Numbered from the stretch's first letter, positions 22,314-57,674 are shown. The stretch: DNA of 64,000 bases from Candidatus Parcubacteria bacterium (GCA_963766795.1 CAVYBN010000008.1:32696-96695), one strand, 5' to 3'. Program-made: numbers and translations. The notes: a model not told the origin generated them from the sequence alone.

Positions 22314-22616
22314 TCAGCCTTTCTTATTATTGCGCTTATAGAAATTCTTCGATTCTCGCGTCAAAGCCAGGATACCGATGACGCCGATGTACGAGGCGCT
22401 GACCTCGGCCGGCATGTGATAAGGAGTGGCGTAGAACACGGTTCCGACGATCAAAGCTATGATAAGAATGGTCCAAAGGATGGCATAGACTTCGCCGGGA
22501 TGGAGGAAGCTGTGCATGTGATGCCAACGGCGGAATTCTTTCTCGGCGCTGTAAATGGCTAGGAAGGCCGTGTAGATCGCGGCGATGGCCAGCAGGATCT
22601 CATTCTGGAAAGACAT
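22314..22616 (-). CDS. Small membrane protein; may continue upstream to 22722 through an overlapping 40-aa ORF
   Basis: Three predicted hydrophobic helices. An upstream ORF (22600-22722, MKGLKKIGSFKTW...) overlaps it by 17 nt in another frame. Confidence 0.4.
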   Translation of the reverse strand: MSFQNEILLAIAAIYTAFLAIYSAEKEFRRWHHMHSFLHPGEVYAILWTILIIALIVGTVFYATPYHMPAEVSASYIGVIGILALTRESKNFYKRNNKKG

Positions 22617-27763: not shown

Positions 27764-28842
27764 AAAAAAATTAAAACTCAAAATTCAAAAGTCAAAACTT
27801 CGGAAGCAGACCTTTGATACCGTCGGCAAACAAAGTATATGCCCTCACGAATGAGTCGTCGACATGGGCGTACAGGATCCCCTCTCCGGGCCCAGTCTCG
27901 ACGAATTGGCTGGCGAAGGTGATCGTCTTGGCTTCGCTGTCTTGAATGAGCGGCTCCGGCGACACCCAGTCGATTTTGCCTTTTTCATAGTCGTATATGA
28001 ATAAGCCGACGGAGAACGTGCCGTATTTGATCTTGCCGTTGATCTTTTGATTCGCTTCGCGGCCATTCATGATTCCCAGCAATTTGTTTTCGCCGACGTC
28101 GATAAAAGATTTCGGCAACAGCGGCCCCGGCGAGGCATGACCGCCGATCCAGGGGATCCCATGCTCTTTTGGATGGAAGACTGTCTCGCCGAATTTCCAC
28201 GGTTTGCCCATGTCTTCGGCAATCGCGATTTTGACTATCGAATAAGTATCATCGGGCCTTCGATCGCGGGATTCAATCAAATTAAATCTGATACCGTTTG
28301 AATTCATTGGAGGGATTGAGACCTCTTTTGCGCTTTCATCGGCAACTCCCTTATCCAAAAGCGCCGGCATCGTCATCTCTAACGAATCGATGCTTTTTCC
28401 AAATGCGTGGCCAAGGTGAATCTTGATCTTTTCCGTATCTTTCGGAGGCTTTATCGGGATAGTGAAGTAAATGTGCGTCAGCCCAGTCTTGCCATCAATG
28501 AAAATATCGGGATCTTCAAGTCCGATGAAATCCCAGCCTTTCTCCGTAAGAGAGCCGATCACCTTATCCTCATTTTTAATTTGTAGCCGCTCACCGATCT
28601 CAAACAGCTCCAATGACTCGCCGGTGAACAAATGGAGCTCGCTTCGATCAAGATTGCCTTTTACCCCGATTTCGCCGCTTCTAGAAGTGATGCAACGGAT
28701 GATGCCTCTGGGAATCTTTGAGGATGGATCCAAAGTCACCGCCATGACATGTTTGAAACGGCCGTCGGCCGCGACCACTTTGCCGGCATGTTGTATATAT
28801 GCGGCGTCATTTTGACTTTTGCCTTTTGAATTTTGCATTTAC
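27764..28842. repeat. Second hairpin-bracketed cassette (same word family, one heptad indel between arms) enclosing one ORF
   Basis: The left arm aaaactcaaaattcaaaagtcaaaactt opposes the reverse complement of the right arm, aaatgcaaaattcaaaaggcaaaagtcaaaatg. The ORF start and stop both fall inside the arms. Confidence 0.7.
27792..28838 (-). CDS. Beta-propeller glycosidase/phosphorylase-like protein (GH130/DUF377-like, tentative)
   Basis: GLEDPDIFIDGKTGLTHIYFT resembles the G-x-EDPR motif. 348 aa. It is inserted between the adaptor and ATPase genes of the macAB-like operon. Confidence 0.35.
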   Translation of the reverse strand: MQNSKGKSQNDAAYIQHAGKVVAADGRFKHVMAVTLDPSSKIPRGIIRCITSRSGEIGVKGNLDRSELHLFTGESLELFEIGERLQIKNEDKVIGSLTEKGWDFIGLEDPDIFIDGKTGLTHIYFTIPIKPPKDTEKIKIHLGHAFGKSIDSLEMTMPALLDKGVADESAKEVSIPPMNSNGIRFNLIESRDRRPDDTYSIVKIAIAEDMGKPWKFGETVFHPKEHGIPWIGGHASPGPLLPKSFIDVGENKLLGIMNGREANQKINGKIKYGTFSVGLFIYDYEKGKIDWVSPEPLIQDSEAKTITFASQFVETGPGEGILYAHVDDSFVRAYTLFADGIKGLLPKF

Positions 28843-30360
28843 TTCACGTAAGTGACGACCTTATCTCCCGGATTGAGTCCCGAGACGATCTCGATCGTGC
28901 CGTCGGAGCCCTTAAGGCCGGTTACGACGGGAACAACCGAATAGGTTTTACCGTCAAGGCTTACCACGCGCACGGTCGTCGAAGTGGCCGTCGAAGTCAG
29001 GGCACGATAAGGGATCTCTATCACGCCATCTGCCTCATGCGTGTGGATCTCCAGATTGGCAGTCATGCCTGGACGGATGCGGCTGTCTGGCGACACGAAC
29101 GCCAGCGTGACTTTATAGGTCGGCACGCCTTCGAGGACGGTCTCGGCCGGGTCGATCATGGCCACGCGCTCGGGGAAATCGACGTATGAGCCGTAGGCGT
29201 CGAGCGTGCTCAGAAGCCAGATCTCCGACGGCGACCTTGGCGATGTCGGCCTCCGGGACGAAGGCTTCCACCTTGAATCCGCCGCTCTCTACCGCGAAGC
29301 CGGACTGGCCCGGCGCGGCGTATTCGCCGGCATTCGGGTCTTCCTGCGTGACGATGCCGTCGATCGGCGAGCGCAAAGTGTCTTCGTCGAGCAAAGCCTG
29401 TGCCTGCGCGACCTTGGCGGCTTGCGCGGCGACCGATTGCGAGGAATCCCCTGAAAGCTTGAGATTGTAATTCGAGACGGCTTGATCGTATGCCGATCGG
29501 GCGGCGGAAAGCTCGCTCTGGGCGGCAGTCACGGAATCGACGGCCGTATTCAAGGCGGTCATGCCGGAATTCATGGCGGCCACATAAGCATTGATGGCAG
29601 ACTGCGTCAGACCGGAATTGCCGGGGTTCAAGGCGTTGACTATGGGGGCAAGGCCGCTCATGAATGCCTTCATCGTCAAGAGATAGCCGTGGGCATCGCC
29701 GATGATCCCGGTGGCGTTGCTTGTAGAAGCGCTCACGAGCTCGGCCGACCAGCCGTTCAATACGTCAGTGATCAAGACCCGTTCGGAATCTATGGAATTC
29801 TGCTGGACGGACGATTCGGTCCTCACATTGATGGTCGGATTGGCGCTCTGTGGATTGGTGAATAAGGAATCCGCGTAGTTGACGATCGCGCCTTGGGCTT
29901 TGACATAGCCGTCGTGGAAAGCGTTGACCGCGTCTTTCATGGCGTTGTCCAGAGAGGCTTTGGCCGTGGCGAGGCTGGCTTGTTGCACCGCCAATTCCTG
30001 CGGCGAGAGGCTGCGCGACATGTCAGCCAATGTGGCCTGCGCGCTTGCCAGAGCCGCCCGGTCATTGGCATTGTCGAGCGAGGCGATAGGATCGCCGGCT
30101 CTGACGGCATCGCTGACTTTGACGTAGATCTTGGTGATGACTCCGCCCTTCTCGAAAGACAGGCTGGCCTTGCCGACCGGAGAGACGGTGCCGGTCACGG
30201 AGACCGTCTCGACGACATTGCCGAGCGCCGCCTGCGTCCATTCGAATGCCGGCGCCGTGCCGCCTCGGCGGTACCAGACGAATATGACTATGATCACGAC
30301 TATAGCGATCGTCGTAAGCACCCACTTATTCTTGAGATGTCGCCAACGAGATTTCTTCAT
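28839..30360 (-). CDS. MacA/HlyD-family periplasmic adaptor, with a frame break near 29205-29218
   Basis: ORF 29113-30360 has an N-terminal TM helix, coiled coil and RSPIDGIV lipoyl motif. It continues in another frame as ORF 28839-29165 (VAMIDPAETVLEGVPTYKV...). Confidence 0.75.
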
Positions 30361-34315: not shown

Positions 34316-35501
34316 CTATGCGACTATTTTGGTTACGACACCCGACCCTACTGTCTTGCCTCCCTCACGGACGGCGAAGCGCATCTGGGCTTCGAGGGCG
34401 ACCGGCGCGACCAGCTTGACCTTGAAGGTCACGGTATCGCCGGGCATGACCATCTCGACCTTCTCCGGCAAAGTGACTTCGCCGGTGACATCGGTGGTGC
34501 GGATGTAGAACTGAGGCTTGTAGCCGGTAAAGAACGGGGTGTGGCGGCCGCCTTCCTCCTTCTTCAAGACGTAGACTTCAGACTCGAATTCGGTATGAGG
34601 CTTTACGGAACCCGGCTTGGCCAGGACTTGGCCGCGGGAGACGTCTTCTTTGGCGGTGCCGCGCAGGAGCAATCCGGCGTTGTCTCCGGCGATGCCTTCC
34701 TTAAGCGACTTGTTGAACATCTCGATGCCGGTGATGACGGTCTTGGCGGCATCACGGAAGCCGACGATCTCGACTTCGTCGCCGACCTTGACCTTGCCGC
34801 GCTCGATCCTGCCGGTCACGACTGTGCCGCGTCCTTCGATCGAGAAGATGTCCTCGATCGGCATCAGGAACGGCTTGTCGACTTCGCGCACTGGCTCCGG
34901 GATGTAATTGTCCAGAGCATCCATGAGCTCGTCGATCTTGAGTTGTCCAGGCAGCATCGCCTTCGAGGGCCTTCAGGGCCGAGCCGCGGATGACCGGGGC
35001 ATTCTTGCCGTCGAAGCCGTTCTTGGTGAGGAGCTCGCGCACTTCCTCCTCCACGAGATCGATGAGGTCCTTCTCCTCGACCATGTCGCACTTGTTGAGG
35101 AATACGAGGACTTTCGGCACGCCGACCTGGCGGGCCAGGAGGATGTGCTCGCGGGTCTGCGGCATGACGCCGTCGGTGGCGGACACGACCAGGATGGCTC
35201 CGTCCATCTGGGCGGCGCCGGTGATCATGTTCTTGACGAAGTCCGCGTGGCCGGGACAGTCGATGTGGGCGTAGTGGCGCTTGGCCGTCTCGTACTCGAC
35301 GTGCGAGAGCGAGATGGTGACGGTCTTGGTGGCGTCACGGACGGTGCCGCCCTTGGTAATGTCGGCGTAGGCTTTGACCTGTGCCATGCCCTTCTTGGCC
35401 TGGACGGCCAGAATAGCGGCGGTCAAAGTGGACTTGCCGTGGTCGATGTGGCCGATGGTGCCGACGTTGACGTGCGGCTTGGTGCGATTGAAATCTGCCA
35501 T
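34316..35501 (-). CDS. tuf: Elongation factor Tu, with one frame break near 34946
   Basis: ORF 34752-35501 (GHIDHGKST...[12 protein letters not shown]) and ORF 34316-34957 ([18 protein letters not shown]...) join if one extra base after the TGG codon is ignored. Confidence 0.85.
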
Positions 35502-35729: not shown

Positions 35730-38511
35730 TCACAATCCGGTGCATCCCGGCCAATGCGTGGTGGCGCATAGCTGTCTGACCGCTTCCCAGCCGGCGGCTT
35801 CATTCGGATTTGAAGAGGCGTCGGAAGTCGGCGCCGTCAACGTGAAGTTGGCCGCGTTGGCATAATCGTTGCCGTAGCTATTCTGGACATAGACTTTGTA
35901 GACCCCGGGAGTCTGTGAATATGTGGTCGGTAAGGTGAGCTTCATAGTGGTCCCGTCAGTCGAGATGGCGCCGAGCACGGTGAACATATGATCGTCGTCC
36001 AGCTTGAAATAGCGTCATTCGCGTTGCCGCCTGACCCGAAGCTGCCGGTGCCGACCGTGAAGTTGCTGCCGTGGATGGTCACTGAAGCGCCGAGAGACGC
36101 CGACGAAGGCGTTATGTAATTGATTACGGGACCGGTGGGAGCGGGACTGACTTTGAATGTCACAGGATTGCTCAAGCCGTTCGCATTTCTGACAGTGATC
36201 GAATGATTCCCGACTGACAAGGTGGACGGGAGCGTGAAGGTGATCATTGATCCTCCAGACGAGAGGTTGCCGACATTGGAGCCGCCCATACCTGCGCTCG
36301 TGCCGTCTATCATCACATTGTTGCCGGTCGGGGTGAAGTTGGTGCCGTAGATGGCCACATTCGACTGTGTCATCGCGGTAGTGTTGGTATCCAAGGGACC
36401 TTGGGTGATGGTGGGAGGCTGACTGGTTGAAGATTGCTGCGTCGTCGCATTCCCCACCTGCACCGTCGAGCTCCACGTTGACGTGAAGCCGGCGCTGTCC
36501 GTGACCGTGAAGGTCACCGTGTATGTGCCAGGATTGGCATACGAGTGAGAGAAAGTCTCGATCTGGGTGAAGCTGTTGGCCGCCGTGGCACGAGACTGGA
36601 TGGCGGTATCGCCCCAATTCTCCAAGTAAGTCAATGAGGCGTACTGCGGATCGCTGACATTGAAGCTCCACGTGCCGGCCTGGCCGACGTTGAGCGTGGT
36701 CGGAGCAGTGCCGCCGGAGATGACTGGGGGTTGATTCGTGCTGGAACCGGACGGAATTATCGTGAACGAAGCGCTGTTTGCTCCTGTCGCGCCCTTGCCA
36801 CTGAACTGTATCTGATAACCCTTTCCGCCAAGTACGCCGCCAGACGCATACTGCGACTGGACAGTCCATGAGAATGAAGTCTGTGACGGATACACGCTGC
36901 CAAGATAGATGGAACCCGAAGAACCCAGCGAACTTCCTACGAGATAGACCGAATAACCGCTGACTCCCTGATCCCATCCTGTCCAAGTGATATTGTAGGT
37001 CTGCCCTGATTGCAATACAGAGTTGGTGGTTGGATAAGTGATAGTGAGTGGACCTGTGTTAGGAGTATAGATCACGCACGAATACCCCGAAGGACAATTC
37101 GATGTCACAGTCGTGCATGTGTATCCGTTAGGACAGATATTGGTTGAGCCGGGCAAGTTGCAAATATAGCCAGCAGGACAAGTCTGGGCCGCACCGCTAG
37201 AAACTATGGTGAAGTAGGAATCGCTGCCGTCATAGACACCGTTGGCGGTTATAGGATCGGCAGAACCTGAAGTATTGCAATAAACATTCGGATCCAAGCA
37301 AGTCCCGACTCTAAGCCAATAATTTCCAGGCTGAATAGTAGAAGGAATCGTCCAATTTACGCTTCCGGGATTTCCGGTGACATTGACCAGATTTTTTACC
37401 ACCAAAGCACCCGTGTTTGGATTGTACAGGTCAAGAGATACTCGAGAGACATTGGAAGAAGCCCAGCTGATGGTATATGTCTGGCCTATTTGCCAATTTT
37501 CTCCCCCATTCGGGCTCAAGACGGTGATGGAAGGTTGGGTACGTCGATACCGCCGCCATTGAAGTTTGCTGAGACCTTCAAATTATCCAAACCCGAAGTG
37601 ATCCAAGAACCTTGAGGATTGCTCGGACTGGTGCCATAGTCGATTCCGACGATCTGAGCGATATTAATTCCGTTCACAGATGCGCCTGCATTGCTTATTG
37701 AACCGTTGAAGACAAGCTGACGTGAAGAACCGGCAGGAATTATGTAATAATTCGATGAATCACCAGCCAAGGTAGCCGGGCTGACTGTTATACCGCCCTT
37801 ATCTGGACTCACATTCCCATTCTTGCTTCCAAATTCAAGAACAATGGCCGGAATAAAATATATAGAGGTATTCCCAGCCGTTAGGGTGAAGCTGAATGAA
37901 ACCGGATAATAACTAGTCGCTCCGCTGGAATTGGTAACTGCCGCGCCAAGCGAAGCTGAAGTGTTGCTAATTTGGACTTGACTAGAAACAGGAGTAGGAC
38001 TCGTTATGCCGCAGGACAATGTGATAGTCCTGCGCGTTATTGCGTCAAGAACGCCAGTCGCGGGCAATCCGACGCTGGTCTGATAGCTTTGGAGAGCAGT
38101 CACCGTCTGACTTCCGAAGTATCCCCTAGCCGTTCGGCCAGCGGATACGGCTGAAATATCAAAACCGTTAGTCATCAGCCAATTCTGGAGAGCGACGACA
38201 TCAGCACCGGTACTACCAATGGTGAGAGTCGTGGTGAATTGATAGCAGTTACCTTTTGTGCCGGTATAACCATTGCCGCCTCCGTTAAAACCGCCGCCGG
38301 AAGAACCGCCGCCGGTTGAGACTGGAGTGTTCGGCGTGCAGACATATCCCGCGGGACAATTAACGGGCTGGGTCGGATTTATCGGCGTACAGGTATAACC
38401 AGCCGGACAAGCGACCGTAGTCTGCGCCTGCGCGACGACTGGGATAAAAGCCACGACGCCGAATGCGGCAATGGAGAGCGCGAGACTGAACGAAACTAAT
38501 GACTTTTTCAT
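35730..38511 (-). CDS. Large secreted surface protein (PG-binding-like, PKD-like and Ig-like repeats), with two frame breaks
   Basis: Three colinear ORFs (37516-38511, 35942-37519, 35730-35987). The first has a signal peptide. The breaks, near 37536-37542 (C run) and 36005-36010 (T run), look like 1-nt deletions. Confidence 0.6.
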
Positions 38512-38626: not shown

Positions 38627-39454
38627 TCACATCCTGCCAATCTCGGCCTTCAGAATGTCGCGCAGGTTCGCGCTGACGTCATTCACATACCGATCATCGG
38701 CAATCAGCGCCTCAAGATCAAGCTTGATGCTCGCCGGATCGGCCTCTTCTACCGCGGACAAAAGCAGGCGTTTGAGCTCATCCTTGTCCTCCGCTTCTTT
38801 GATGCACGCCATATTCGGAGAAACGCCTTTGCGGAGATACCACATGAGATCGAAATAGTCGCGCCCTTTGACGGTCGCCAGGACTTCGCCGCTCTTGCTC
38901 GTCTTTTTCCATTTCCTGTGGAGGACCGCCCTCACTTTCGTAGCCATCAACGTCGGAAGATCGAATGTCCTCACGATGATGGACCGATTGGCCTTGAAAA
39001 GCGGCACCGCTTCGACTTTGCAACCGCGCAAGAGACCGTCATCATTGAACACTTCGACCTTCAGCATGAGAATATCGGAATCCGCGGTGCCGGCCAAGCC
39101 CAATTCTCTAAGGATCGGGAACTTGAGCATGACGCGGAATTTCTGCGTTGAAACGGCGGCTTTGACGTCCGTGTGCTTATTGAAATAATCAGCAAGATCT
39201 CGGCCGAGCTTGGCTATGTCGAAATTCCCTCCGATATTGACGAAATCCAGATCCTCGGAAAGCCGCGGCAACCCATAGCACTGCGCTAGGCTCGATCCGC
39301 CGTAGAATACCAATGCGCCGTAAACCGGATCGGAATATAGATAATCCAAGACGACTATCTGCAAGTATTCTTTCAAGATATTGCGCCGAAACAGCGCATT
39401 AGATGAGGGTGCTTCCGTCACTAGCCTTTTAAGCGCAGGTTTTAATTCTTCCAT
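38627..39454 (-). CDS. abiEii: AbiEii/AbiGii-family nucleotidyltransferase toxin (DUF1814)
   Basis: LVFYGGSSLAQCYGLPRLSEDLDF is an N-terminal NTase motif. It overlaps the upstream AbiEi-like gene by 13 nt. Confidence 0.7.
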   Translation of the reverse strand: MEELKPALKRLVTEAPSSNALFRRNILKEYLQIVVLDYLYSDPVYGALVFYGGSSLAQCYGLPRLSEDLDFVNIGGNFDIAKLGRDLADYFNKHTDVKAAVSTQKFRVMLKFPILRELGLAGTADSDILMLKVEVFNDDGLLRGCKVEAVPLFKANRSIIVRTFDLPTLMATKVRAVLHRKWKKTSKSGEVLATVKGRDYFDLMWYLRKGVSPNMACIKEAEDKDELKRLLLSAVEEADPASIKLDLEALIADDRYVNDVSANLRDILKAEIGRM

Positions 39455-40092
39455 AGTGTTTTAAGCATATCTCTCATTCGCACCGAGCCTTCCAACTCGA
39501 CGTATCCCGCCAATTCTGTCTTATCTTCCCTCTTCAGCGCCCCAAGATTCAATCGTAACTCTCCGATGGCTGCTTTGTCCGACAACTGGTTCTTTCTAAA
39601 ATACAAAAAATCAAACAGAGCTTTTGCCGGACTGGCGCGGAATATGAGGTAATCACCGTCCCGCACCGGCTTAAAACCGATGAAGAGCGGCTGCTTGATG
39701 CTGTGATATTTGTAGGTTCCGAACGGCGGCGCGAATGAAGCGGTTTTTTTCCGAGTGACCATAGTCACGCCAACGGGCATTTCGGTGATAATGCCGTGCC
39801 GATGCAGCTCATATTCAAGGCTTAGATATGAAGGTCCGTACAATAAACAGGCGAGGCATTCGGCATACGCGCCGGTGCGGCCGGATTTCTCCACCTGGTC
39901 GAGATAATCCCGCGTCACATACATACCCCTTTTCAAACGGACGACATTGCCGGATCTGACACGGCGCGATAATAATACTGTCAGATATTTTCTATCCGTT
40001 TCAATGCTTGCCAGATCATCCAGAGTAAAAACCGGCAAATGTCTTGCCGTTTCAAGGATCTTACTGATTTTTGAATTTCCTCTGTTTCTCAT
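39442..40092 (-). CDS. abiEi: AbiEi-family antitoxin / transcriptional regulator
   Basis: N-terminal wHTH pattern (VFTLDDLASI...LSRRVRSGNVVRLKRGMYV). Confidence 0.6.
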   Translation of the reverse strand: MRNRGNSKISKILETARHLPVFTLDDLASIETDRKYLTVLLSRRVRSGNVVRLKRGMYVTRDYLDQVEKSGRTGAYAECLACLLYGPSYLSLEYELHRHGIITEMPVGVTMVTRKKTASFAPPFGTYKYHSIKQPLFIGFKPVRDGDYLIFRASPAKALFDFLYFRKNQLSDKAAIGELRLNLGALKREDKTELAGYVELEGSVRMRDMLKTLWKN

Positions 40093-40211: not shown

Positions 40212-42393
40212 TTACTTCCTCTTTTCCTTGATCTCCAGCGCAACATTGGCCGGCACGACTTCATAGTGGTCGAATTCCATCTGGGCAGAGCCTTGGCCGG
40301 AAGTCATGGAGCGGAGCTGATGTGGTGTAGCCGAACATCTCGGAGAGCGGAACTTTGGCGATGATGGAGACGACTTGGCCCTTTGGATTCTGGCCTTCGA
40401 TTAGGCCGCGCTTTGAGGCGATGCGAGCCGTTGACGTCGCCCATGTATTTCTCCGGACAGACGACTTCGAGCTTCATGATAGGTTCGAGGATGACCGGCT
40501 TGGCGCGCTTGGCGGCATCTTGGAAAGCCTGGCGAGGCGGCGATTTTGTAGGCGATTTCGGACGAGTCGACATCGTGGTAGGAGCCGAAGGTCAGCTCGC
40601 AGGAGATGTTGACCATCTTGAAACCGGCCACGATGCCGCGGTCCATGGCTTCGTGCACGCCTTTTTCGACGGCCGGAATGAATTCCTGCGGGATGACGCC
40701 GCCTTTGATGGAGTTGATGAATTCGAAATCGTCGTAGCGCTTGACGTTCTTCGGGATCTTCTCGCCTTCGGACCAGCGGCTTCATCGGGCTTAATGGTCA
40801 GGCGGACGTGGCCGTACTGGCCCTTGCCGCCGGTCTGCTTGATGTATTTGTGTCTCGGCCTCGGCCTCGCCGAAAGGATCGTCTCGCGATAAGCCACTTG
40901 CGGTTCGCCGACATTGGCCTCGACGCCGAATTCGCGCTTCATGCGGTCAACCATGATCTCGAGATGCAGCTCGCCCATGCCGGAGATGATGGTCTCGCCG
41001 GTTTCGCTGATTGGTGGAGATGCGGAAGGTCGGGTCTTCGTTGCCGAGCTTGCGGAGAGCCATGCCCATCTTCTCCTGGTCGGCTTTGGTCTTCGGCTCG
41101 ATGCGCAGCGACACGACCGGATCCATGAATTTGATGACTTCGAGCACGATCGGGTTGCTCTTCGTCGCAGAAAGTGTTGGAAGTCAGGGCGTCCTTCAGT
41201 CCGACGGCCGCGGCGATTTCTCCGGCAAAGACTTTCTTGACCTCTTCGCGCTTGTCGGCTTGGAGACGGACGATGCGGCCGAGGCGCTCTTTCTTGCCGG
41301 TCGTGGAATTGTAGATATAAGTGCCGGCTTCGATGGTGCCGGAATAGACGCGGAAGAAGGTCAGCTGCGCCGACGAACGGGTCGTTCTGGAGTTTGAAAG
41401 CCAGAGCGGCAGAAAGGCTCGTCGTCGGAAGCGTGGCGGAAAATCTCTTCGCCGGTGTTCGGATCGATGCCTTGGATCGGCGGCATGTCGAGAGGCGACG
41501 GCAGGTAGTCCACGACGGCGTCGAGGACGAGCTGCACGCCTTTATTTTTCAAGGCCGAGCCGGTGAAGACCGGGAACATCTTGTTGTCTATGACGGCTTT
41601 GCGCGATGATCTTCTTGAGTTCGTCGATCGACGGCTCTTTGCCTTCGAGATAATGCTGCATCGCGGTATCGTCATGTTCAACGATCTTCTCGATAAGTTC
41701 GGCGCGATATTTCTTGGCGTCTTCGAGCAAGATCGGCCGGAATCTCCTTTTCGATGACTTTGTCGCCCATCTCGCCTTCGAAGTAATAGGCCTTCATTTT
41801 GAGCAGATCAACGACGCCGTCGAATGTTCGCCTTCAAGCCCGATCGGAATCTGGAATCTGCACGGCATTCTTGTTCAAACGCTCGAGAATGGACTTGATA
41901 TGAGCGCTCGAATGAGGCGCCCATGCGGTCCATCTTGTTGATGAAGCAGAGGCGCGGCACATTGCCATCGTCGGCATAGCGCCAGTTGGTCTCCGATTGC
42001 GGTTCGACGCCAGCGACGCCGTCGAAGACGACCACCGCTCCGTCGAGTACGCGCAGAGACCTCTTCACTTCGACCGTGAAGTCGATGTGTCCCGGCGTGT
42101 CGATGATATTGAAACGGACCTTTTTTGAGATGTCGTCTTACCGTCAGCGCCTTTCAAGCCGGCATGTATGTCGGATTCCAGAAACAAGTGATGGCCGCGG
42201 CGGTGATGGTGATGCCGCGCTCGCGCTCCTGTTCCATCCAGTCGGTGACCGTGTCGCCCTCGTGCACTTCGCCGATCTTGTGGGTCATGCCGGTATAGAA
42301 AAGGATGCGCTCGCTGGTCGTGGTCTTGCCCGCGTCGATATGGGCGATGATGCCGAAGTTTCGGACTTGCTCGAGTGGATAGTCGCGGTTCAT
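40212..42393 (-). pseudogene. fusA: Elongation factor G, with about 15 frame breaks
   Basis: EF-G-homologous segments appear in all three minus frames (ORFs 42154-42393, 41808-42068, 41542-41730, 41361-41681, 40947-41147, 40592-40978, 40401-40658, 40304-40573). Manual stitching gives a colinear full-length EF-G ending ...[21 protein letters not shown]. Confidence 0.85.
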
Positions 42394-42526: not shown

Positions 42527-43024
42527 TTATGAGAATACGGAACCTGACGACAAATGCTCATCTGAGTTTGTTAAAGCATCCCTTTTCCTCTTTAATGAAG
42601 CAATCTTCTCGTCGATTATCATGAGCTTCTTCTGAAGATTGTCTGAGGAATTTATGATCCTGTGTCTATGAACATTATTTTCTCTATAACTAACCCATTC
42701 CAAATTGCTAGCAGCATTATTAGATATATCACCATCCTTATGATTCACGAGAGGGAGATTCATTGGATTCTCAATAAAAGTTCTGGCCACAATTCTGTGG
42801 ACTTTAGTAGTATGACGCCTTATAGCCAAGTCTTTACTGTACAATACCACCATGGCATATTCTCCTGGACTCACGTAAGGGCGTAAGACTCTACAGAGTC
42901 TTTTGTTTCTTACTTTACCCAGATTACTCACCTCATACTTATCTTCCCAACCAGGAATATTGACTGGTCTCCATTCTTCGATATTACCATCTTGTGTTCC
43001 ACCATCAGTGTTCATAATGACCAT
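42527..43024 (-). CDS. HNH homing endonuclease (NUMOD4 plus HNH_3 type)
   Basis: YEVSNLGKVRN, VHRIVARTFIENP and VNHKDGDISNNAASNLEWVS. Confidence 0.75.
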   Translation of the reverse strand: MVIMNTDGGTQDGNIEEWRPVNIPGWEDKYEVSNLGKVRNKRLCRVLRPYVSPGEYAMVVLYSKDLAIRRHTTKVHRIVARTFIENPMNLPLVNHKDGDISNNAASNLEWVSYRENNVHRHRIINSSDNLQKKLMIIDEKIASLKRKRDALTNSDEHLSSGSVFS

Positions 43025-43048: not shown

Positions 43049-43579
43049 CTATAAAAATATTTTATTGGCGTTTGCAGTTCTGATCCATCGTTCAAACATC
43101 CGACAGAAAATCATAATGCACTCTTTTTCTGTAAGATTTTCATTAGACCAATCGATTTGCCAATCTCCATGAACAATCTTGTTTCTTATTTCGTAAATAA
43201 GAGCAATCATATCTCCAGCAATATTTTTTGGTTCAATGAACGACCGTTCTTTTCTAGACTTATTTAAATCATCTGCAGAGCAAATATATACCTTGGTAGC
43301 TTTTGCGATATTGTATAGACCTTCAAAGTCATTTTTAGTAACTACGCTCGAATAGATACTCGAAAATGAATTCTCGTTTTTTCTAAAATTGACTAAAGCA
43401 TCCGTTATATTTCTAAAATTTCCTTGTGTATCCATCCAAGTTTCAAAAAGTGACCAAAGAAAAACAAGTTTTATGTAATCATAATCCCGATAACCTTTCC
43501 GGGGAAGATTTAATTTATCCAAATCAATAAGAATTTTGTCTACATATCCTTGATTAAGTTTTGTTTTTTCATATTTCAT
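43049..43579 (-). CDS. Putative HEPN-domain protein
   Basis: YEIRNKIVHGDW contains the R-x4-H motif. Helical and low GC. A 4-nt overlap with the upstream gene suggests co-transcription. Confidence 0.35.
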   Translation of the reverse strand: MKYEKTKLNQGYVDKILIDLDKLNLPRKGYRDYDYIKLVFLWSLFETWMDTQGNFRNITDALVNFRKNENSFSSIYSSVVTKNDFEGLYNIAKATKVYICSADDLNKSRKERSFIEPKNIAGDMIALIYEIRNKIVHGDWQIDWSNENLTEKECIMIFCRMFERWIRTANANKIFL

Positions 43580-44577
43580 TCATTCTGACCATATTCAGTC
43601 TGCGATGTTTCTGTCTCTGCTTGTAGTTTAGGGAAATCTGTACCAAAATATTTTATATTTGCTTGTCCGATTGCTGTTCCTTCAGTTTGTTGGTCGGCTG
43701 ATGCCTTATCCGCATTTTGTTGATAGGTAGTCATCTGATTAAGGGTGTTTATTATCGGCGTACCAAACATTCCATTTTGCTGGTTAGTACAGACTGATTC
43801 CCACGCCATTGCTATTGATTTTTCATTAGTAATAATATCTCTGTAATCATTACTGTACATGAAAAGTGGTACATTTATCTCCATAGGAATATTTGAGGGG
43901 ATAGTATTTTCAAGATTCATTTGGTTTGCAGTGTCGAAAGCACTTTCTGCTGATTTGGCCTCTGCAATACATAAAGAATTATTGTTGCCGCTTGATACAT
44001 CGGCTGCCTTGACGATATATTGCAGGGCAGTATTTATCTGGGTGCCAACAGAGAGGTTTTTGTGCCAAAAATCATGAAGCGAGATTAAGACAGCTTTTTT
44101 TGCCTCATATTCACCGCTTGAAGATGCCGTAACCGCTGACTGATCTTGCGGTTGTGTTGGATTTAAAACACTTTGCGGTATTTGCGGGACCTGACAATAT
44201 GCATTACCAATCTGCGGACAAATAAGATTTTGTCCTACGGGACATTCGCTAAAATAAGTACCATTACAAAGAGTGCCTGCTGGTGTAGGAGAAATAGTCA
44301 CAGGCGGAGAAACTTTTTGAACAACTTTTTTGACTGGCTGACTTGCTGGAGGTGTTGAATTCGCCGCCATATTTATTGAAGTTGTAGCAATAATCGAGGT
44401 TGAAGTACTTATAAAATTATTTGATGAAGTCGTCGTGCCAACAATCTGCACCTGTAAAGAGCTAGGATTATTGAACAAGGCCGACCAATTCCATGAAAGC
44501 GGATTCCACCATGAAGCAAAAGCAACCGATGGGACGATAAGTAATAATGTAGTGATTATTGGAAGATATTTTTTCAT
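43576..44577 (-). CDS. Secreted protein; function unknown
   Basis: Signal peptide MKKYLPIITTLLLIVPSVAFA (start chosen at 44577), followed by a Ser/Thr-rich linker and a Cys-containing domain. Confidence 0.5.
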   Translation of the reverse strand: MKKYLPIITTLLLIVPSVAFASWWNPLSWNWSALFNNPSSLQVQIVGTTTSSNNFISTSTSIIATTSINMAANSTPPASQPVKKVVQKVSPPVTISPTPAGTLCNGTYFSECPVGQNLICPQIGNAYCQVPQIPQSVLNPTQPQDQSAVTASSSGEYEAKKAVLISLHDFWHKNLSVGTQINTALQYIVKAADVSSGNNNSLCIAEAKSAESAFDTANQMNLENTIPSNIPMEINVPLFMYSNDYRDIITNEKSIAMAWESVCTNQQNGMFGTPIINTLNQMTTYQQNADKASADQQTEGTAIGQANIKYFGTDFPKLQAETETSQTEYGQNE

Positions 44578-44634
44578 AACTTGATAATACCACTTATGGC
44601 TCATTTCCACCATTTGAGCTACGAACAAAGTATC

Positions 44635-45027
44635 TTAGTCGTGGTGGACTTCTCCATCTGCGTCAATATGGGTGATACAAAATAATTGTTCTCTCTGATA
44701 GCCGAACACTCGAAACTTATCGATCGGAACGCGGAAATGAAAATAATATTGTTGCATCAACTTTTGAGCAGAACTGTTCTGCAGGTCGATCATTTTAAAG
44801 CTATCGGACCCATGCTTTTCGGAAGTGATTCCATTCTCTCGGGGCAAGGCTCCGAATTGGCTCCACGTAAGCTGTTCAAAATGTCTTAATCTTTTTAAGA
44901 ACTTATCCGCTTGTTCCCTGCTTAAAGTGTAAAAAGACATATTCTTGACTAGAGTGCAGTCACAAATAGAAAAAATCACCTTGGATTCGGCGTAAGCAAG
45001 ATCTATTTTGCTAGGTGTCGTATCCAT
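44635..45027 (-). CDS. Uncharacterised protein; candidate toxin partner of the DUF4065 gene
   Basis: It lies 23 nt downstream of the DUF4065 ORF, in the same arrangement as 11755-12664. No family recognised. Confidence 0.35.
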   Translation of the reverse strand: MDTTPSKIDLAYAESKVIFSICDCTLVKNMSFYTLSREQADKFLKRLRHFEQLTWSQFGALPRENGITSEKHGSDSFKMIDLQNSSAQKLMQQYYFHFRVPIDKFRVFGYQREQLFCITHIDADGEVHHD

Positions 45028-45050: not shown

Positions 45051-45527
45051 TTATTTATTTAATAGAGGTGCGTAGTACTCACTTATCGACTTGTGCGAGA
45101 TCACCTTGTTATTGGAAGCGTAGGCCTCTTTCCATGGAGAGTGCGCGTGTGCAATATCAACTAATCTTCCAGCAGAATAACCGCCAAAGAGATCCCAGAC
45201 TCTCTTGAGATTTTCCCTATCTTCATCAGAAAGCGTTGCCTCATCTTTTTCATGGATAATGCTGTCACTCACATATTCACGATATTTTTTGTACACGGAA
45301 GGAACGACTGGGCCGTATTCCCAGGCCTCGATCGCATCGCTAAACAAAGGCTTCCCCAGTTTTGACAGATAATAAGCCTGCGCGAAATAGAGAATCTTCT
45401 GAAGCTTTAGATTTGTGATGCCTTCTCGTTCTTTGTTATCACCTACAAAGACCTGTGAGGCCAAGTAAATGAAGTGTTTAGCCACATTTTCAGCGCTGTA
45501 TGGAGATTTGAGTTGTGTAGTAGTCAT
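45051..45527 (-). CDS. DUF4065 (SocA/Panacea) antitoxin-domain protein
   Basis: LKLQKILYFAQAYYL...IEAWEYGPVVPSVY. Confidence 0.7.
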   Translation of the reverse strand: MTTTQLKSPYSAENVAKHFIYLASQVFVGDNKEREGITNLKLQKILYFAQAYYLSKLGKPLFSDAIEAWEYGPVVPSVYKKYREYVSDSIIHEKDEATLSDEDRENLKRVWDLFGGYSAGRLVDIAHAHSPWKEAYASNNKVISHKSISEYYAPLLNK

Positions 45528-45656: not shown

Positions 45657-46127
45657 TTACCACGCGAAGTGAGCGAAGGCCTTATTCGCCTCGGCCATCT
45701 TGTGCATGTTCTCGCGCTTCTTGATGGCTTCGCCTTCATTCTTGGAAGCGGCGATGATCTCGTCGGCCAGCTTCTCGGCGATCGGCTTGCCTTTCTTGTT
45801 GCGGGCGGCTTCGATGATCCACTTCATGCAGAGCGCGTTCTGGCGCTGGGGACGCACCTCGCGCGGGACCTGATAGTTGGCTCCGCCGACGCGGCGCGAA
45901 CGGACTTCCATGGCCGGAGTGGTGTTCTTTAGGGCGAGCTCGAAGACTTCGAGCGGATTCTCGACTTTGGCTTTCTCCTTGATGGTATTCATGCAGTCCG
46001 CCACGATACCGCGGGCGGTAGTCTTCTTGCCGGACTCCATGATGTAGTTCGTGAATTTGGCCAGCTTCAATGACTGATATGTCATGTCCGGCTTCAGCTC
46101 GCGTTTGATGTTTATTTTTCTGCGCAT
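45657..46127 (-). CDS. rpsG: 30S ribosomal protein S7
   Basis: 156 aa; NTTPAMEVRSRRVGGANYQVP. Confidence 0.95.
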   Translation of the reverse strand: MRRKINIKRELKPDMTYQSLKLAKFTNYIMESGKKTTARGIVADCMNTIKEKAKVENPLEVFELALKNTTPAMEVRSRRVGGANYQVPREVRPQRQNALCMKWIIEAARNKKGKPIAEKLADEIIAASKNEGEAIKKRENMHKMAEANKAFAHFAW

Positions 46128-46213: not shown

Positions 46214-46636
46214 TTAGGCTGTCTTAGCGGCCTTCGGCCTCTTGTTGCCGTATTGACTTCGACCTTTCCTGCGGGCTTCGACGCCGGCGCAGTCCAGAAC
46301 GCCACGGACGATGGAATAACGCAGACCGACGTCCTTGACGCGGCCGCCGCGGAGCAAGACTACGGAGTGTTCCTGGAGATTGTGGCCCATGCCCGGGACG
46401 TACGCGGTCACTTCGACGCCGTTGGTCAGGCGCACGCGGGCGATCTTGCGGATGGCGGAGTTAGGCTTCTTAGGCGTCTTGGTGGTGACTTTGACGCAGA
46501 CGCCGCGCTTGAATGGTGCCGGGAAGAAGCTCGGGCGGTTGGCGATCGTATTGAAAGTGCGCGTCAAAGCCACGGACTTCGACTTTGCCTTGAAGCGCTT
46601 GCGATGGGACTTGGTGAGCTGATTGATGGTTGGCAT
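46214..46636 (-). CDS. rpsL: 30S ribosomal protein S12
   Basis: MPTINQLTK...[10 protein letters not shown]. Confidence 0.95.
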
Positions 46637-51887: not shown

Positions 51888-52333
51888 TCATACGATGCCC
51901 GCCGTCCTCCAGAGCAGCTCATAGTGTTCGAGATATCCTTCGTCGGTCTGAAAAATGGTGACGATCATCCCGTAGCCATTTTTCATACGCTCGATGACGA
52001 TCGAATGCAAACGGCCATCCTTATAATCCTTGGATGAGGAGATGACTTGGAAACGGTTGCTCTCCTTTGCGGTCCTTATCTCTATATCTCTATCGGCCGA
52101 GAAAGCATGACGGGCAATACAGACAGAAGCCGTCGGCCCTCTTTTCCCTTCTCTGCAACATGCTTCAAGGACAACCTAGAAAATACAAGGCATTTTTCAT
52201 TAACACCGGTAATCTCTCTGGTCTCACGAGACAATCTAAATGTCGTTGGAATCAATTCATCCGGTCTATCAATTAGAATGCCCTTGGGAAGCTTCTGCAA
52301 AGCCATGAATTGTGAAAGGAGATTCTTATTCAT
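51888..52333 (-). CDS. Hypothetical protein, with a frame break near 52085
   Basis: An ATGA overlap with the comEC stop. MNKNLLSQFMALQKLPKG... ends at 52082, then continues in another frame (EIRTAKESNRFQVISSSKDYKDGRLHS...) to a TGA at 51888. Confidence 0.35.
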
Positions 52334-53805
52334 GTTTTTTCGAAGGAACCTGTCCTCCTCTTCCACCACAAGAACCCGCCGATGAATGCGGCGTAGAAAC
52401 CGACGACCCACCAAATAGAGAATGGCGGGAAGTAGGCTGCGGCGAACGGCAACTTGGCGAACCATTCGACGATGAAGAGCTCGTATGACAGTAATAGATG
52501 CGCGGACCAGCCGATGACGATCGAGATTGGATGCCAGATGAAGCCAAGAGCGCCAGTCAAGAATACGGCTAGCATTGTGATCGGAATGAATGGCAGGACT
52601 AGAATATTCACGAGCACGCCAACAATCGAGATCTGGCCCATCATATAGAGGATGAAGGGCGCGACGAATATCTGCGTGGCCAGACAAGAAGCGATCGTTC
52701 CACGCATCCCGAACTTATCCGGGATCCATTCGAGCTTGTTTTCTATCGGGCCGGCCAGAAGAACTAGACCGATCGTGGCCAGGAATGAGAGCTGGAATGA
52801 CGGGTCATGCATCAGGATGAGCGGATTGGCGATGAGCATGATGAGCGCCGCGAACGCCAGGGCTCGTTCGACGCTGTAATCGCGGCGGATGAGGTCAGCG
52901 ATCAAAGCGATTCCCGCCATGAAACAGGAACGGATGACGGTGGCTCCCCCGCCGACGAGAATGCCGAATAAGCCGATGCCGATTCCTCCGATCAAGATGC
53001 CCCAAATGCGCGGCAATCTTGAAAGCATTCGCCTTAGAGCTATGCCGACGATCGTGATATTGAATCCAGATAGGACGACAATGTGGATGAGCCCGACGAT
53101 CCTGAAATCATTCAGGAGGTCTTTGCCAAGCGCAGCCTTGTCGCCGACGACCAAGCCGCCTGCCAGAGCGGCCTGCGGCTCGCCGAGAGCAGATTCCAGA
53201 TTTCCGACGAAGCCACGCTTGATTGCATAAAGCGTCGAAGTGATCGATGTATTCGGATCATCCGTCGCCAAAACCACGACTGCGCTTTTTATTTGATAGT
53301 AAACATCATCTTTTGCCAGATAGCCGGCGTAATCGAAGCTGCGACCGTTGTCGCTGGAGAAATTAAAGGGCTTCGAAAGGTTGCCGGTGAATTCAATCTG
53401 GTCGCCGTAAGAAAATCTCGGGTAGAACTTGGTTTTAATTTGAATGCGAATGTTTTCAGCGCAGATCCCATTAAGAACATCTGATTGAAGTGCGGCTGTC
53501 GTCGATAGGCTGCTGCTTGAGCTCGTACTGGCATGGCTCGCAATTAAATCACTGCTGGAACTGACCTTATTTGAATGAGGTGCAGTTAAATCATCGCTGA
53601 CGATCAATCGCTCCGCGTCAACGTTAAAAACTTGGCCGGTCGCCGTCCGTGAAGGGTCGTCAGCGACTATTCCAACGCCTTTAAGAGGATGGCCGAGACA
53701 GCCGGCGGCGTCAGGCGCGCTTTGGCTGAACGACAAGAACACGCGGACGATGGCGGCCGCGCCGAATAGGCTCCAGAAAGCGAAAGTGCCCCGTTTCATG
53801 GGCAC
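52330..53805 (-). CDS. comEC: ComEC/Rec2 competence channel (OB/DUF4131 plus competence domain), lacking a fused MBL domain
   Basis: 491 aa and polytopic, with the typical ComEC TM core (HIVVLSGFNITIV). Confidence 0.8.
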   Translation of the reverse strand: MPMKRGTFAFWSLFGAAAIVRVFLSFSQSAPDAAGCLGHPLKGVGIVADDPSRTATGQVFNVDAERLIVSDDLTAPHSNKVSSSSDLIASHASTSSSSSLSTTAALQSDVLNGICAENIRIQIKTKFYPRFSYGDQIEFTGNLSKPFNFSSDNGRSFDYAGYLAKDDVYYQIKSAVVVLATDDPNTSITSTLYAIKRGFVGNLESALGEPQAALAGGLVVGDKAALGKDLLNDFRIVGLIHIVVLSGFNITIVGIALRRMLSRLPRIWGILIGGIGIGLFGILVGGGATVIRSCFMAGIALIADLIRRDYSVERALAFAALIMLIANPLILMHDPSFQLSFLATIGLVLLAGPIENKLEWIPDKFGMRGTIASCLATQIFVAPFILYMMGQISIVGVLVNILVLPFIPITMLAVFLTGALGFIWHPISIVIGWSAHLLLSYELFIVEWFAKLPFAAAYFPPFSIWWVVGFYAAFIGGFLWWKRRTGSFEKT

Positions 53806-55529: not shown

Positions 55530-57674
55530 CTATTTAGGAACAATGTCAACCACCCTCAACCTCAATTCCGGCCTGCCACGATACATGGATTTCTCGACGG
55601 AAGCGATGAGGTCGAGCGGCTGACCGGCTTTGGCCTTGTCGGCCCACTCGTTATTCACGCCGAAGAATGAGATGGCGGAGACTTTCTTATTGGCACCGAG
55701 ATCAAACGACAATTCGATGTGCTCATTCCCCTTCCCGAACCGTCGCACGCTGGATGGCTTCACGCTTTTGAAAAGAAATGCCGGCTTGCGATTGCCGATG
55801 CCGAACGGCGCCAGCTTATTGATCTCGTCGTGAAGACGATATGTTATTTGGCTCAATTGGAGCTCGGCGTCGATGAAGCTGGCTTCGGAGGCAGAAGATT
55901 CTTCATCAGCCTTGGAAGTGTCGCTCTCTAGATTATCGTTATCGCCATTGCCTGTCATTTTGTCATTCCCGTGCAAACGGGAATCCAGTGTCTTTCCGCT
56001 AGACTTAATCGTTTCACCCTGGACCCCCGCTTTCGCGGGGGTGACAGAAGCGTCTGGCTTCCTGGTCTCAATCTCTGCATCCTTCGCCAATCCTTCTGCA
56101 GCTTCATTCAATCGTTGCTCCAGATAATGGACGGCGTCATTGCTGACGGTGAATCCGCCGGAATGATGATGGCCGCCAAATTGCGTGAGCGTGCCGACCG
56201 GCATGGCGCGCATGAGTTCGACGACATGGGTCTTGCCTTCGGAGCGGCACGAGCCTTTGATGAGATCGTCGCCGTCGCGGCCCCACAGGAAGACCGGCCG
56301 ATGGAATTCTTCGGCGCAGGAATTCGCGGCCAGACCCAGCAATGAAGGCCTCCATTGCGGATTGCCTAGCACGATGACGCTTGGTAAGCCAGATTTTACA
56401 TGCTCGATCTCTGTGATGCTTTCACCTCCAATCGTTGGACCCTGGATTCCCGCTTTCGCGGGAATGACAACACTATTGTCCTTAACTTTTGAGTTTTGAC
56501 TTGCAATTTTGACTTTTGACTTTTGACTTTTGACTTTGCTTGGTTCTTCGCCGTATCTCTCTCTGATCGTCTTTTTTACCTCCTTGACGAGAGACGCCAC
56601 CACGCCTTTCCTTTCATTATTGATCTCATCCAGATGAGCAGCGGCGATGGCACCGGCCTCGTCGGTATCGGCGGCCAGAAGATCGAATGCGTCCATAGGC
56701 ACGCCCATGCGCGAGGCGGCGTTGATGCGCGGCGTGATCATGAAGGCGATATCGTCCTCGGTCAAGTGTTCCTGCGCGATCCGCAATCTCGAGAGGAGTT
56801 GGCGTAGGCCTTTGCGCGGGCTCTTGCGCAAGACCGTGAGGCCATAGTGCGCGAAGACGCGATTCTCGCCTGTAAGCGGCACCATATCCGAGAGCGTGGC
56901 CATGCCGACCAGATCCAAGAACCACTTCTCGTGTCCTTCCTTGAAGCCGGCCGCGGCAAAAAGCGATGAAAGACTTTTGTCGTCTTTCGACTTCTTGATG
57001 ATCGCCTGGATCAGTTTGTAAGCCACACCGGTACCGCAAAGATTTTTGTCGGGATATTTGCAATCAGCCTGCTTGTGATCGACGATAGCGAAGGCTGGCG
57101 GCTTTTCTTCACATCCGGTCTTCTGAGATATCGGCGCTTCATGGTGATCGGTGATGATGACATCCATTTCCAATTCATTGGCGCGCTCGACAGGCTTTAC
57201 GTCAGTTATGCCGCAATCGACCGTGATAAGCAGCTTCACGCCTTGGCTCGCCAATTCTTCTACAGCTTCGATATTCAATCCGAATCCCTCATTATGGCGA
57301 TGTGGGATGTAGATGACGAAATCCTTGAATCCGATGCGCTTGAAGAAGTCATTCCACATGGCGGCGCCGGGAATGCCGTCGGCGTCATAGTCGGCGTATA
57401 TGGCCATCTTTTCGCTGGAAATAAGCGCCTGAATGATCCGTTCGGCCGCTTTCTCGGCGTCTTTCAACAGGAATGGGTCGTGCGTGTCGCGCTCGTAATC
57501 TGGCACCAGGAATCTTTCGGCAGTCTCGGCATCGCTTATCCCGCGGTGGAACAACAGATGCGCGGTAAGGTCAGGCACGCCGGAAAGCGCGTTCCTTTCG
57601 TCTGGGGTCAAGACTCGTCGGATGGAATAGCTCATAAGGCTGAGTATAGCATTTGCTAGAGAATAAAATTTCAA
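55530..57674 (-). CDS. recJ: Single-stranded-DNA-specific exonuclease RecJ with repeat-derived in-frame insertions
   Basis: DHH motifs (ADYDADG, VIITDHH) and DHHA1. Three repeat elements are translated in frame in the linker region. Confidence 0.85.
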   Translation of the reverse strand: MKFYSLANAILSLMSYSIRRVLTPDERNALSGVPDLTAHLLFHRGISDAETAERFLVPDYERDTHDPFLLKDAEKAAERIIQALISSEKMAIYADYDADGIPGAAMWNDFFKRIGFKDFVIYIPHRHNEGFGLNIEAVEELASQGVKLLITVDCGITDVKPVERANELEMDVIITDHHEAPISQKTGCEEKPPAFAIVDHKQADCKYPDKNLCGTGVAYKLIQAIIKKSKDDKSLSSLFAAAGFKEGHEKWFLDLVGMATLSDMVPLTGENRVFAHYGLTVLRKSPRKGLRQLLSRLRIAQEHLTEDDIAFMITPRINAASRMGVPMDAFDLLAADTDEAGAIAAAHLDEINNERKGVVASLVKEVKKTIRERYGEEPSKVKSQKSKVKIASQNSKVKDNSVVIPAKAGIQGPTIGGESITEIEHVKSGLPSVIVLGNPQWRPSLLGLAANSCAEEFHRPVFLWGRDGDDLIKGSCRSEGKTHVVELMRAMPVGTLTQFGGHHHSGGFTVSNDAVHYLEQRLNEAAEGLAKDAEIETRKPDASVTPAKAGVQGETIKSSGKTLDSRLHGNDKMTGNGDNDNLESDTSKADEESSASEASFIDAELQLSQITYRLHDEINKLAPFGIGNRKPAFLFKSVKPSSVRRFGKGNEHIELSFDLGANKKVSAISFFGVNNEWADKAKAGQPLDLIASVEKSMYRGRPELRLRVVDIVPK
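55962..56045. repeat. 84-bp composite palindromic element, in frame inside recJ
   Basis: gtcattcccgtgcaaacgggaatccag, a 30-nt spacer, then ctggacccccgctttcgcgggggtgac. Translated as VTPAKAGVQGETIKSSGKTLDSRLHGND. Confidence 0.85.
56442..56538. repeat. 27-bp half palindromic element plus a single ttttgac heptad arm, in frame inside recJ
   Basis: ctggattcccgctttcgcgggaatgac is translated as VIPAKAGIQ. It is followed by (ttttgac)n, translated as KVKSQKSKVKIASQNSKVK. Confidence 0.8.

Follow-up and report, generated by a model that had tools for sequence, protein, structure and literature searches.

The fusA gene of this uncultured Paceibacteria (CPR) bacterium is interrupted in the deposited sequence by 18 frame-changing events, and these were probably produced when a single consensus was called over two mixed fusA alleles during metagenome assembly, a reading to which we give a probability of about 0.7. 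That the breaks are an artefact of consensus calling by one mechanism or another, and are absent from the DNA of any cell, is very probable, and there is almost no doubt that this bacterium possesses a normal EF-G. To call the locus a pseudogene, or to count it as a gene loss within the CPR, would be wrong, and the result is chiefly one of quality control. All coordinates given below refer to the window, the whole stretch of 64,000 nucleotides of DNA that was analysed.

The minus strand between positions 40212 and 42393 was translated in its three frames, which revealed no long ORF but a chain of short ORFs that moves across the three frames and encodes consecutive pieces of EF-G. The GTPase motifs G1 (AHIDAGKTT), G3 (DTPGH) and G4 (NKMD) could all be read within these translations. 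The region was then aligned with P0001, the nearest EF-G of the Paceibacteria (Patescibacteria/CPR), using frame-aware protein-to-DNA alignment, and two locally compensated stretches were resolved by hand on top of this alignment. A colinear EF-G of 721 residues was obtained with 18 changes of frame, and no single uninterrupted ORF for EF-G is present in the deposited DNA. The gene measures 2182 nt as deposited compared to an expected 2166 nt, and the net gain of 16 nt is made up of 14 single extra bases, two extras of 2 bases and two missing bases, corresponding to 18 bases added and 2 removed. The first-pass annotation, which had named frame-aware alignment as a test of the interruption, had estimated approximately 15 breaks, of which about 11 were extra bases and about 4 were missing bases. 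The breaks themselves and the mixture of gains and losses are real; the count was slightly low, and two of the supposed losses proved to be 2-base extras. The gene and the individual events, all on the minus strand, are as follows, with residue counts taken from 120 family members.

40212 to 42393, minus strand, fusA (canonical EF-G), a single ORF of 721 codons once the 18 events are removed
42161 to 42162, minus strand, one base missing (event at 42162-42161), CC between ATG and GGC, a Pro codon (CCN) lacking its third base; Pro in 78 of 120 family members
42135 to 42136, minus strand, one base missing (event at 42136-42135), AC between AAG and GAC, a Thr codon (ACN) lacking its third base; Thr in 69 of 120
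41897 to 41900, minus strand, one extra base (event at 41897), TATC, readable as TAT/TAC (Tyr) or TTC (Phe); column 166, where the family has Phe in 62 and Tyr in 58
41860 to 41863, minus strand, one extra base (event at 41860), GTGC, readable as GTG/GTC (Val)
41819 to 41823, minus strand, two extra bases (event at 41823-41819), TCGAC, TCG (Ser, the P0001 residue) overlapping GAC (Asp)
41731 to 41734, minus strand, one extra base (event at 41731), GATC, readable as GAT/GAC (Asp)
41604 to 41610, minus strand, one extra base (event at 41607), ATC-A-TCG, readable as Ile (ATC/ATA), or as Thr (ACG, the P0001 residue) against Ser (TCG)
41411 to 41414, minus strand, one extra base (event at 41411), TTCT, readable as TTC/TTT (Phe), or with the next codon as GCC (Ala) or TCC (Ser)
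41365 to 41368, minus strand, one extra base (event at 41365), GCAG, GCA (Ala, as in P0001) overlapping CAG (Gln, the majority residue); Gln in 75 and Ala in 45 of the family
41154 to 41157, minus strand, one extra base (event at 41157), CAAC, readable as the P0001 residue His (CAC) or the majority residue Asn (AAC)
41006 to 41009, minus strand, one extra base (event at 41009), CAGC, CAG (Gln, the family majority) overlapping AGC (Ser, as in P0001)
40869 to 40873, minus strand, two extra bases (event at 40873-40869), TCGGC, TCG (Ser, as in P0001) overlapping GGC (Gly, the family majority)
40850 to 40853, minus strand, one extra base (event at 40853), ACAC, readable as the P0001 residue Asn (AAC) or the majority residue His (CAC)
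40786 to 40789, minus strand, one extra base (event at 40789), CCCG, readable as CCC/CCG (Pro)
40770 to 40773, minus strand, one extra base (event at 40770), GTCC, with C duplicated after the Val codon
40532 to 40535, minus strand, one extra base (event at 40532), TCGC, readable as TCG/TCC (Ser)
40423 to 40426, minus strand, one extra base (event at 40423), TCGC, readable as TCG/TCC (Ser)
40320 to 40323, minus strand, one extra base (event at 40320), ACAT, readable as ACA/ACT (Thr)

The sequence surrounding the events agrees with two statements made earlier from inspection alone, namely that most breaks lie outside homopolymers and that they share no slippery motif. The extra base has no identical neighbour (run length 1) at 12 of the 16 extra-base sites, and at only one does it fall within a run of 3. 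No 4-mer or 5-mer is common to the 18 shift sites beyond chance, with the most frequent 4-mer occurring at 5 of the 18 sites against a mean of 5.9 in the null, and no stop codon follows closely after any of the fusA shift sites. These observations bear on recoding, a further possibility raised by the first-pass annotation, in which the indels would be real and the mRNA decoded through many +1 and −1 ribosomal frameshifts, transcriptional slippage or RNA editing. The perfect conservation of the stitched EF-G is what would be expected of a functional recoded gene. Programmed +1 frameshifting in prfB and the transcriptional slippage at poly(A) tracts of endosymbionts likewise yield a full-length protein from a frameshifted gene; in those systems there is one site per gene, with a conserved slippery or homopolymer motif. 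In contrast fusA has 18 sites without a motif and outside homopolymers, relatives with 89–94% protein identity have plain ORFs in which the shift sites are not conserved, and the same type of lesion occurs in tuf and rplF. Eighteen events decoded at 90% efficiency each would also be expected to give a yield of only about 15% for an essential and abundant factor. We know of no bacterial precedent for recoding at this density of frameshifts, and the probability of recoding is considered practically negligible. It is extremely unlikely, too, that the indels are real in a lineage that tolerates extra wobble bases in fusA, tuf and rplF and yet produces the complete proteins through a motif-independent skipping or editing of bases.

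The position of the extra bases within codons is informative. For every single-base insertion in fusA there is a placement between two codons that leaves both of them matching the family. At 12 of the 14 single insertions the frame can be repaired in two synonymous ways that differ only in the wobble base, the pairs being TAT/TAC, GTG/GTC, GAT/GAC, ATC/ATA, TTC/TTT, GCA/GCG, AAT/AAC, GAG/GAA, CCC/CCG, TCG/TCC (twice) and ACA/ACT. A null distribution was obtained by simulating 20,000 random insertions in the repaired fusA and scoring them identically. Wobble doubling of this kind was possible at 43% of random insertions (P = 1.4e-3), or at 33% when the composition of the inserted bases was matched (P = 8e-5). 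At 6 of the 14 insertions the frame could also be restored so as to give another common residue, present in at least 10 of the 120 family members, compared to 8.5% at random (P = 6e-4). The sites TATC, GCAG, CAAC, CAGC, TCGGC and ACAC have one reading that gives the P0001 residue and another that gives the residue of other close homologues; the alternative reading is the family majority at five of these six overlap sites, while at TATC the family is divided between Phe and Tyr. The CC and AC remnants of the two −1 events fit four-fold degenerate codons from which the wobble base was dropped. The indels of fusA thus lie at naturally polymorphic positions where both alleles can still be read. 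The statistical support for this signature is good but not overwhelming, with P values of 1e-3 to 1e-4 for 14 to 17 events.

Some features of the lesions could also be accounted for by a generic local error of sequencing or assembly in a single allele, where a stretch of noisy long-read consensus, thinly covered or never polished, has accumulated random, insertion-biased errors. Raw PacBio-type error is dominated by insertions outside homopolymers, and the lesions in fusA resemble it in both respects. Such a stretch might take the form of a gap filled from few reads, or of a region left without its polishing reads, which had been discarded or had been attracted to another contig. Locally unpolished loci with frameshifts are among the cases described in PMC8081667. 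Random insertions, however, predict wobble doubling at 33–43% of sites rather than at 12 of 14, and a second natural residue at 8.5% rather than at 6 of 14. Substitutions would also be expected in such sequence, as described below, and generic error is regarded as unlikely. The first-pass annotation had proposed a mis-assembled or low-coverage region; an artefact is retained here, and simple low coverage is not, given that the indels are non-random and fall at wobble or polymorphic positions.

The protein encoded by the locus carries no detectable load of substitutions. The hand-stitched EF-G was 92% identical to P0001 over 100% of its length, and its identity to over 100 EF-G proteins encoded in metagenome-assembled genomes (MAGs) of the Paceibacteria and Taylorbacteria (Patescibacteria/CPR) was 85–90%, which points to an uncultured CPR bacterium, and hence to an assembly of metagenomic origin, as the source of the window. 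The repaired EF-G of 721 amino acids was 94% identical to P0001 and matched the TIGR00484 equivalog with a score of 1045.9 bits (cutoff 659.4) across profile positions 1–690 of 691. The repaired gene contained no in-frame stops, and the protein contained no changes at the 390 columns that are invariant across 120 homologues. Private residues numbered 2–4 in the repaired EF-G compared to 0–7 in intact homologues. Identity to the eight best matches was 0.90–0.94, while those matches shared 0.87–0.92 among themselves, so that the branch leading to the window's EF-G is not lengthened. Simulation showed that 10 random substitutions would introduce a stop or a change at an invariant column with a probability of 0.995, leaving a probability of escape of 0.005. 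As even this small number would nearly always be visible and none was seen, neutral decay is incompatible with the data, and ordinary noisy sequence is disfavoured as well.

A decaying copy of fusA, with a functional paralogue elsewhere, had been one of three explanations put forward by the first-pass annotation, which made no choice among them. In this case the gene would have been inactivated and would be gaining real indels while a functional EF-G was encoded at another position in the genome. The indels are present in the deposited sequence, and fusA is bordered by mobile and defence islands, the HNH endonuclease gene on its upstream side and AbiE on its downstream side, where local disruption is conceivable. 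Pseudogenes in reduced or host-associated genomes can similarly appear as essential-looking genes with multiple frameshifts. Real pseudogenes, however, also gain substitutions, stops and deletions, and the repaired fusA shows no stop, no change at any invariant column, a normal count of private residues and no lengthening of its branch. Bacterial pseudogenes usually show a bias towards deletion, which is opposite to the bias towards insertion observed here. The repaired gene is a canonical EF-G equivalog and not a spare of the EF-G2 type, and a similar lesion is found in both tuf and rplF. The search for a paralogue was run within the 64-kb window and gave no second fusA there, the only other match being the GTPase domain of tuf. 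The decay of fusA is therefore judged very unlikely. An ORF of 714 amino acids at 55530-57674 was considered as a second fusA and was rejected, as it encodes RecJ.

The fusA genes of relatives were compared with the window at the DNA level, as had been suggested by the first-pass annotation. None of the seven relatives aligned has an interrupted fusA, and the 18 extra bases of the window are absent from all of them; the closest fusA DNA available aligned at only 68–77% identity, which shows that the extra bases are unique and cannot place the indels base-exactly. Among the matches listed from the collections of genome and metagenome contigs there was no fusA of the same species, the relatives having protein identities of at most 89% and at most 84%. 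Some relatives gave matches of 2.6–3.2 kb, suggesting insertions or inteins within fusA. These were rejected, since fusA ends at approximately 700–725 codons throughout and the greater length arose because tblastn had joined the GTPase domain of the downstream tuf.

The background rate of frameshifts was determined by searching the window with ORFs from 80 related loci, which provided homologue coverage of approximately 30.8 kb outside fusA. Four homology-supported frameshifts were identified in these 30.8 kb, and all were +1 events:

9299 to 9303, minus strand, rplF, CTC-G-ACC, an extra base at the wobble position of Leu (event at 9301)
34937 to 34942, minus strand, tuf, ACT-C-AAG, an extra base at the wobble position of Thr (event at 34940)
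22603 to 22613, minus strand, gene for a membrane protein of 142 amino acids, one extra base (at approximately 22611), readable as Val (GTC/GTT) or Pro (CCA/CCG)
overlapping ORFs 28839-29165 and 29113-30360, HlyD-like adaptor, +1 event at approximately 29215, also with a truncated Pfam match

Three of the four are clearly of the wobble type (tuf ACT+C, rplF CTC+G and GTC+T at 22611), and when these three were pooled with the fusA insertions 15 of 17 events were of this type (P = 1.7e-4). Two of the four, in tuf and rplF, affect essential single-copy genes, showing that lesions like those of fusA are also found in other genes of this class. The density of frameshifts is one per 121 nt in fusA compared to approximately one per 7.7 kb in the homologue-covered sequence elsewhere, a difference of about 60-fold (Poisson P of approximately 2e-26), which bears out the contrast in density noted at first inspection. 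The ribosomal protein genes rpsL (46214-46636) and rpsG (45657-46127) were uninterrupted, again as first noted. Other overlapping pairs of ORFs on the same strand were examined as possible frameshifts by a Pfam scan and were rejected, as the second ORFs had no matches and are probably spurious ORFs of high-GC sequence.

Taken with the wobble and overlap sites of fusA, this background is consistent with a consensus in which reads from two closely related fusA alleles were mixed. The alleles would derive from two strains or from a related co-occurring population, one of them being P0001-like at the diagnostic sites and the other resembling the family majority, and each would be an intact EF-G gene of 721 codons. 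The P0001-like allele is predicted to encode Phe166, Ala341, His411, Ser460, Ser505 and Asn511, and its counterpart Tyr166, Gln341, Asn411, Gln460, Gly505 and His511. Positions at which the alleles differ would have been aligned as an insertion plus a deletion rather than as a mismatch, and the consensus would then have retained both versions, giving the +1 and +2 events, or on two occasions neither, giving the −1 events. The same process may have operated at a low rate along the contig, in tuf, rplF and the other affected genes. Mixing of alleles would explain the lack of substitution load, as all of the variation would have passed selection, together with the bias in codon position and the low density of lesions elsewhere. 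The mixing of the reads, the software step responsible and the confinement to fusA are proposed here from the sequence of the window.

Several reports describe related behaviour of long-read assemblies. Long-read metagenome assemblers are described as merging strains of 97.6–98.7% identity into one consensus (PMC8302730), and long-read MAGs have been described as chimeric population genomes with rates of polymorphic sites of up to 7.7% (PMC8012365). A second haplotype that competes for reads can lead to a local failure of polishing and to frameshifted genes, in the example presented in Extended Data Fig. 11 of PMC8081667. The artefacts described for Strainberry (PMC8302730) and by the VGP (PMC8081667) are similar to fusA in that one consensus represents two related sequences, with a local drop in quality and frameshifts at places where reads are contaminated by, or lost to, a second haplotype. 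The side-by-side writing of both alleles at wobble positions is a signature that we infer from fusA itself and do not take from the accounts in PMC8302730 and PMC8081667. Small indels are also described as often splitting genes in long-read metagenomes and in long-read or hybrid MAGs (10.1101/2021.08.23.457338, the proovframe preprint; PMC9262707). The genes split in the cases given there show the same indels of 1–2 nt in an otherwise perfect protein, with the lesions scattered across essential genes. The split-gene errors of MAGs, as characterized in those accounts, are mainly errors of homopolymer length, whereas in fusA 12 of 16 lie outside runs, insertions dominate and the events are concentrated about 60-fold in one gene.

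The combination of indels that double wobble bases or overlap codons with a substitution load of zero provides a reusable test, applicable without reads, that distinguishes a mixed-allele artefact from a pseudogene and from random error. It also suggests that two fusA alleles co-occurred in the sampled community.

The concentration of the events within fusA can be considered in terms of its neighbours. The str operon is split here by accessory DNA. Between rpsG and fusA there are a SocA/Panacea-type pair, two AT-rich ORFs (GC 0.33–0.41) and the HNH endonuclease gene, while AbiEi/AbiEii and surface proteins lie between fusA and tuf. The endonuclease gene had been recognised in the first-pass annotation, and was found to carry a NUMOD4 domain in addition to HNH_3:

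42527-43024, minus-strand fusA lying downstream, free-standing intact ORF of 498 nt, NUMOD4 + HNH_3 endonuclease

The dense zone of frameshifts is limited to fusA, as this HNH ORF and the AbiEi ORF (651 nt) on the other side of fusA are both intact. Boundaries as sharp as these are also compatible with the generic local error considered above. Under the preferred reading of two mixed alleles, fusA would form a conserved island of 2.2 kb between accessory flanks that are specific to each strain, and reads from the foreign allele, or a collapsed edge of the assembly graph, would then be expected to align together with the others over fusA alone.

Two observations count against the mixing of alleles. 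Extra-base events outnumber losses by 16 to 2, where a symmetric coin-flip merging of the alleles predicts no asymmetry, so that some property of the consensus software must be assumed. It is also odd that tuf and the operons of ribosomal proteins, which are equally conserved, contain only single events. A related and more tentative possibility, which we consider somewhat unlikely, is that the population is truly dimorphic at this locus, with two diverged fusA alleles, one P0001-like and one majority-like, that could have arisen by recombination or co-conversion associated with the neighbouring free-standing HNH endonuclease and defence islands. The database entry P0121, of 162 amino acids, is 100% identical to the HNH endonuclease protein of the window.

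Outside fusA, the gene for elongation factor EF-G, frameshifts supported by homology were located in the following genes of the window.

9301, rplF, single +1 frameshift
~22611, 142-aa membrane-protein gene, single +1 frameshift
~29215, HlyD-like adaptor, single +1 frameshift
34940, tuf, single +1 frameshift

The frame breaks proposed in the first-pass annotation for tuf, rplF and the adaptor were each confirmed as one +1 change, and the presence of such a change in both tuf and rplF means that these two essential genes are also 'broken' in the deposited sequence. For the frameshift listed in the same annotation for an ORF at 52085, homology support was sought and none was found. The 201-aa ORF at 52082–52687, which gave no match in Pfam, overlaps in another frame the 3' part of a ComEC (Competence/DUF4131) gene at 52330–53805.

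The str operon (rpsL-rpsG-fusA-tuf) is interrupted by accessory islands between positions 35942 and 46636.

45051–45527, SocA/Panacea-domain gene, after rpsG
44635–45027, 130-aa partner of the SocA/Panacea-domain gene, after rpsG
43049–44628, two ORFs of 33–41% GC, neither matching Pfam, between the SocA/Panacea pair and the HNH gene
42527–43024, HNH gene, beyond these ORFs and ahead of fusA
38627–40092, AbiEi/AbiEii, after fusA and before tuf
35942–38511, PG-binding/PKD surface proteins, after AbiEi/AbiEii and before tuf

On the contig encoding P0001, the nearest database EF-G, a SocA_Panacea gene likewise follows rpsG, and an MvaI/BcnI restriction enzyme comes after fusA.

The HNH gene, annotated at first pass as a free-standing endonuclease, contains NUMOD4 and HNH_3 domains and is of the phage homing-endonuclease type, and its remoter matches included HNH endonucleases of Lactococcus phages. 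On another contig (L161, 5133–5606), the gene of the closest distinct relative, database protein P0122 (63% identity), is flanked by scpA and scpB. Given these two locations, the family seems to insert within conserved operons.

Among the matches listed, EF-G matches of 2.6–3.2 kb were obtained in related loci L007, L011, L015, L022, L024, L034, L053 and others. Insertions or inteins in these fusA genes were rejected, as tblastn had fused the fusA match to the homologous GTPase domain of the adjoining tuf; fusA measured ~700–725 codons in every such relative.

MNT/HEPN toxin-antitoxin pairs are normally encoded by two separate genes, while in the window a HepT-like RNase domain shares a single 291-aa ORF (20554–21429) with a Polbeta/NTP_transf_2 nucleotidyltransferase domain. 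This ORF may be a true fusion, or may reflect a consensus error uniting two genes.
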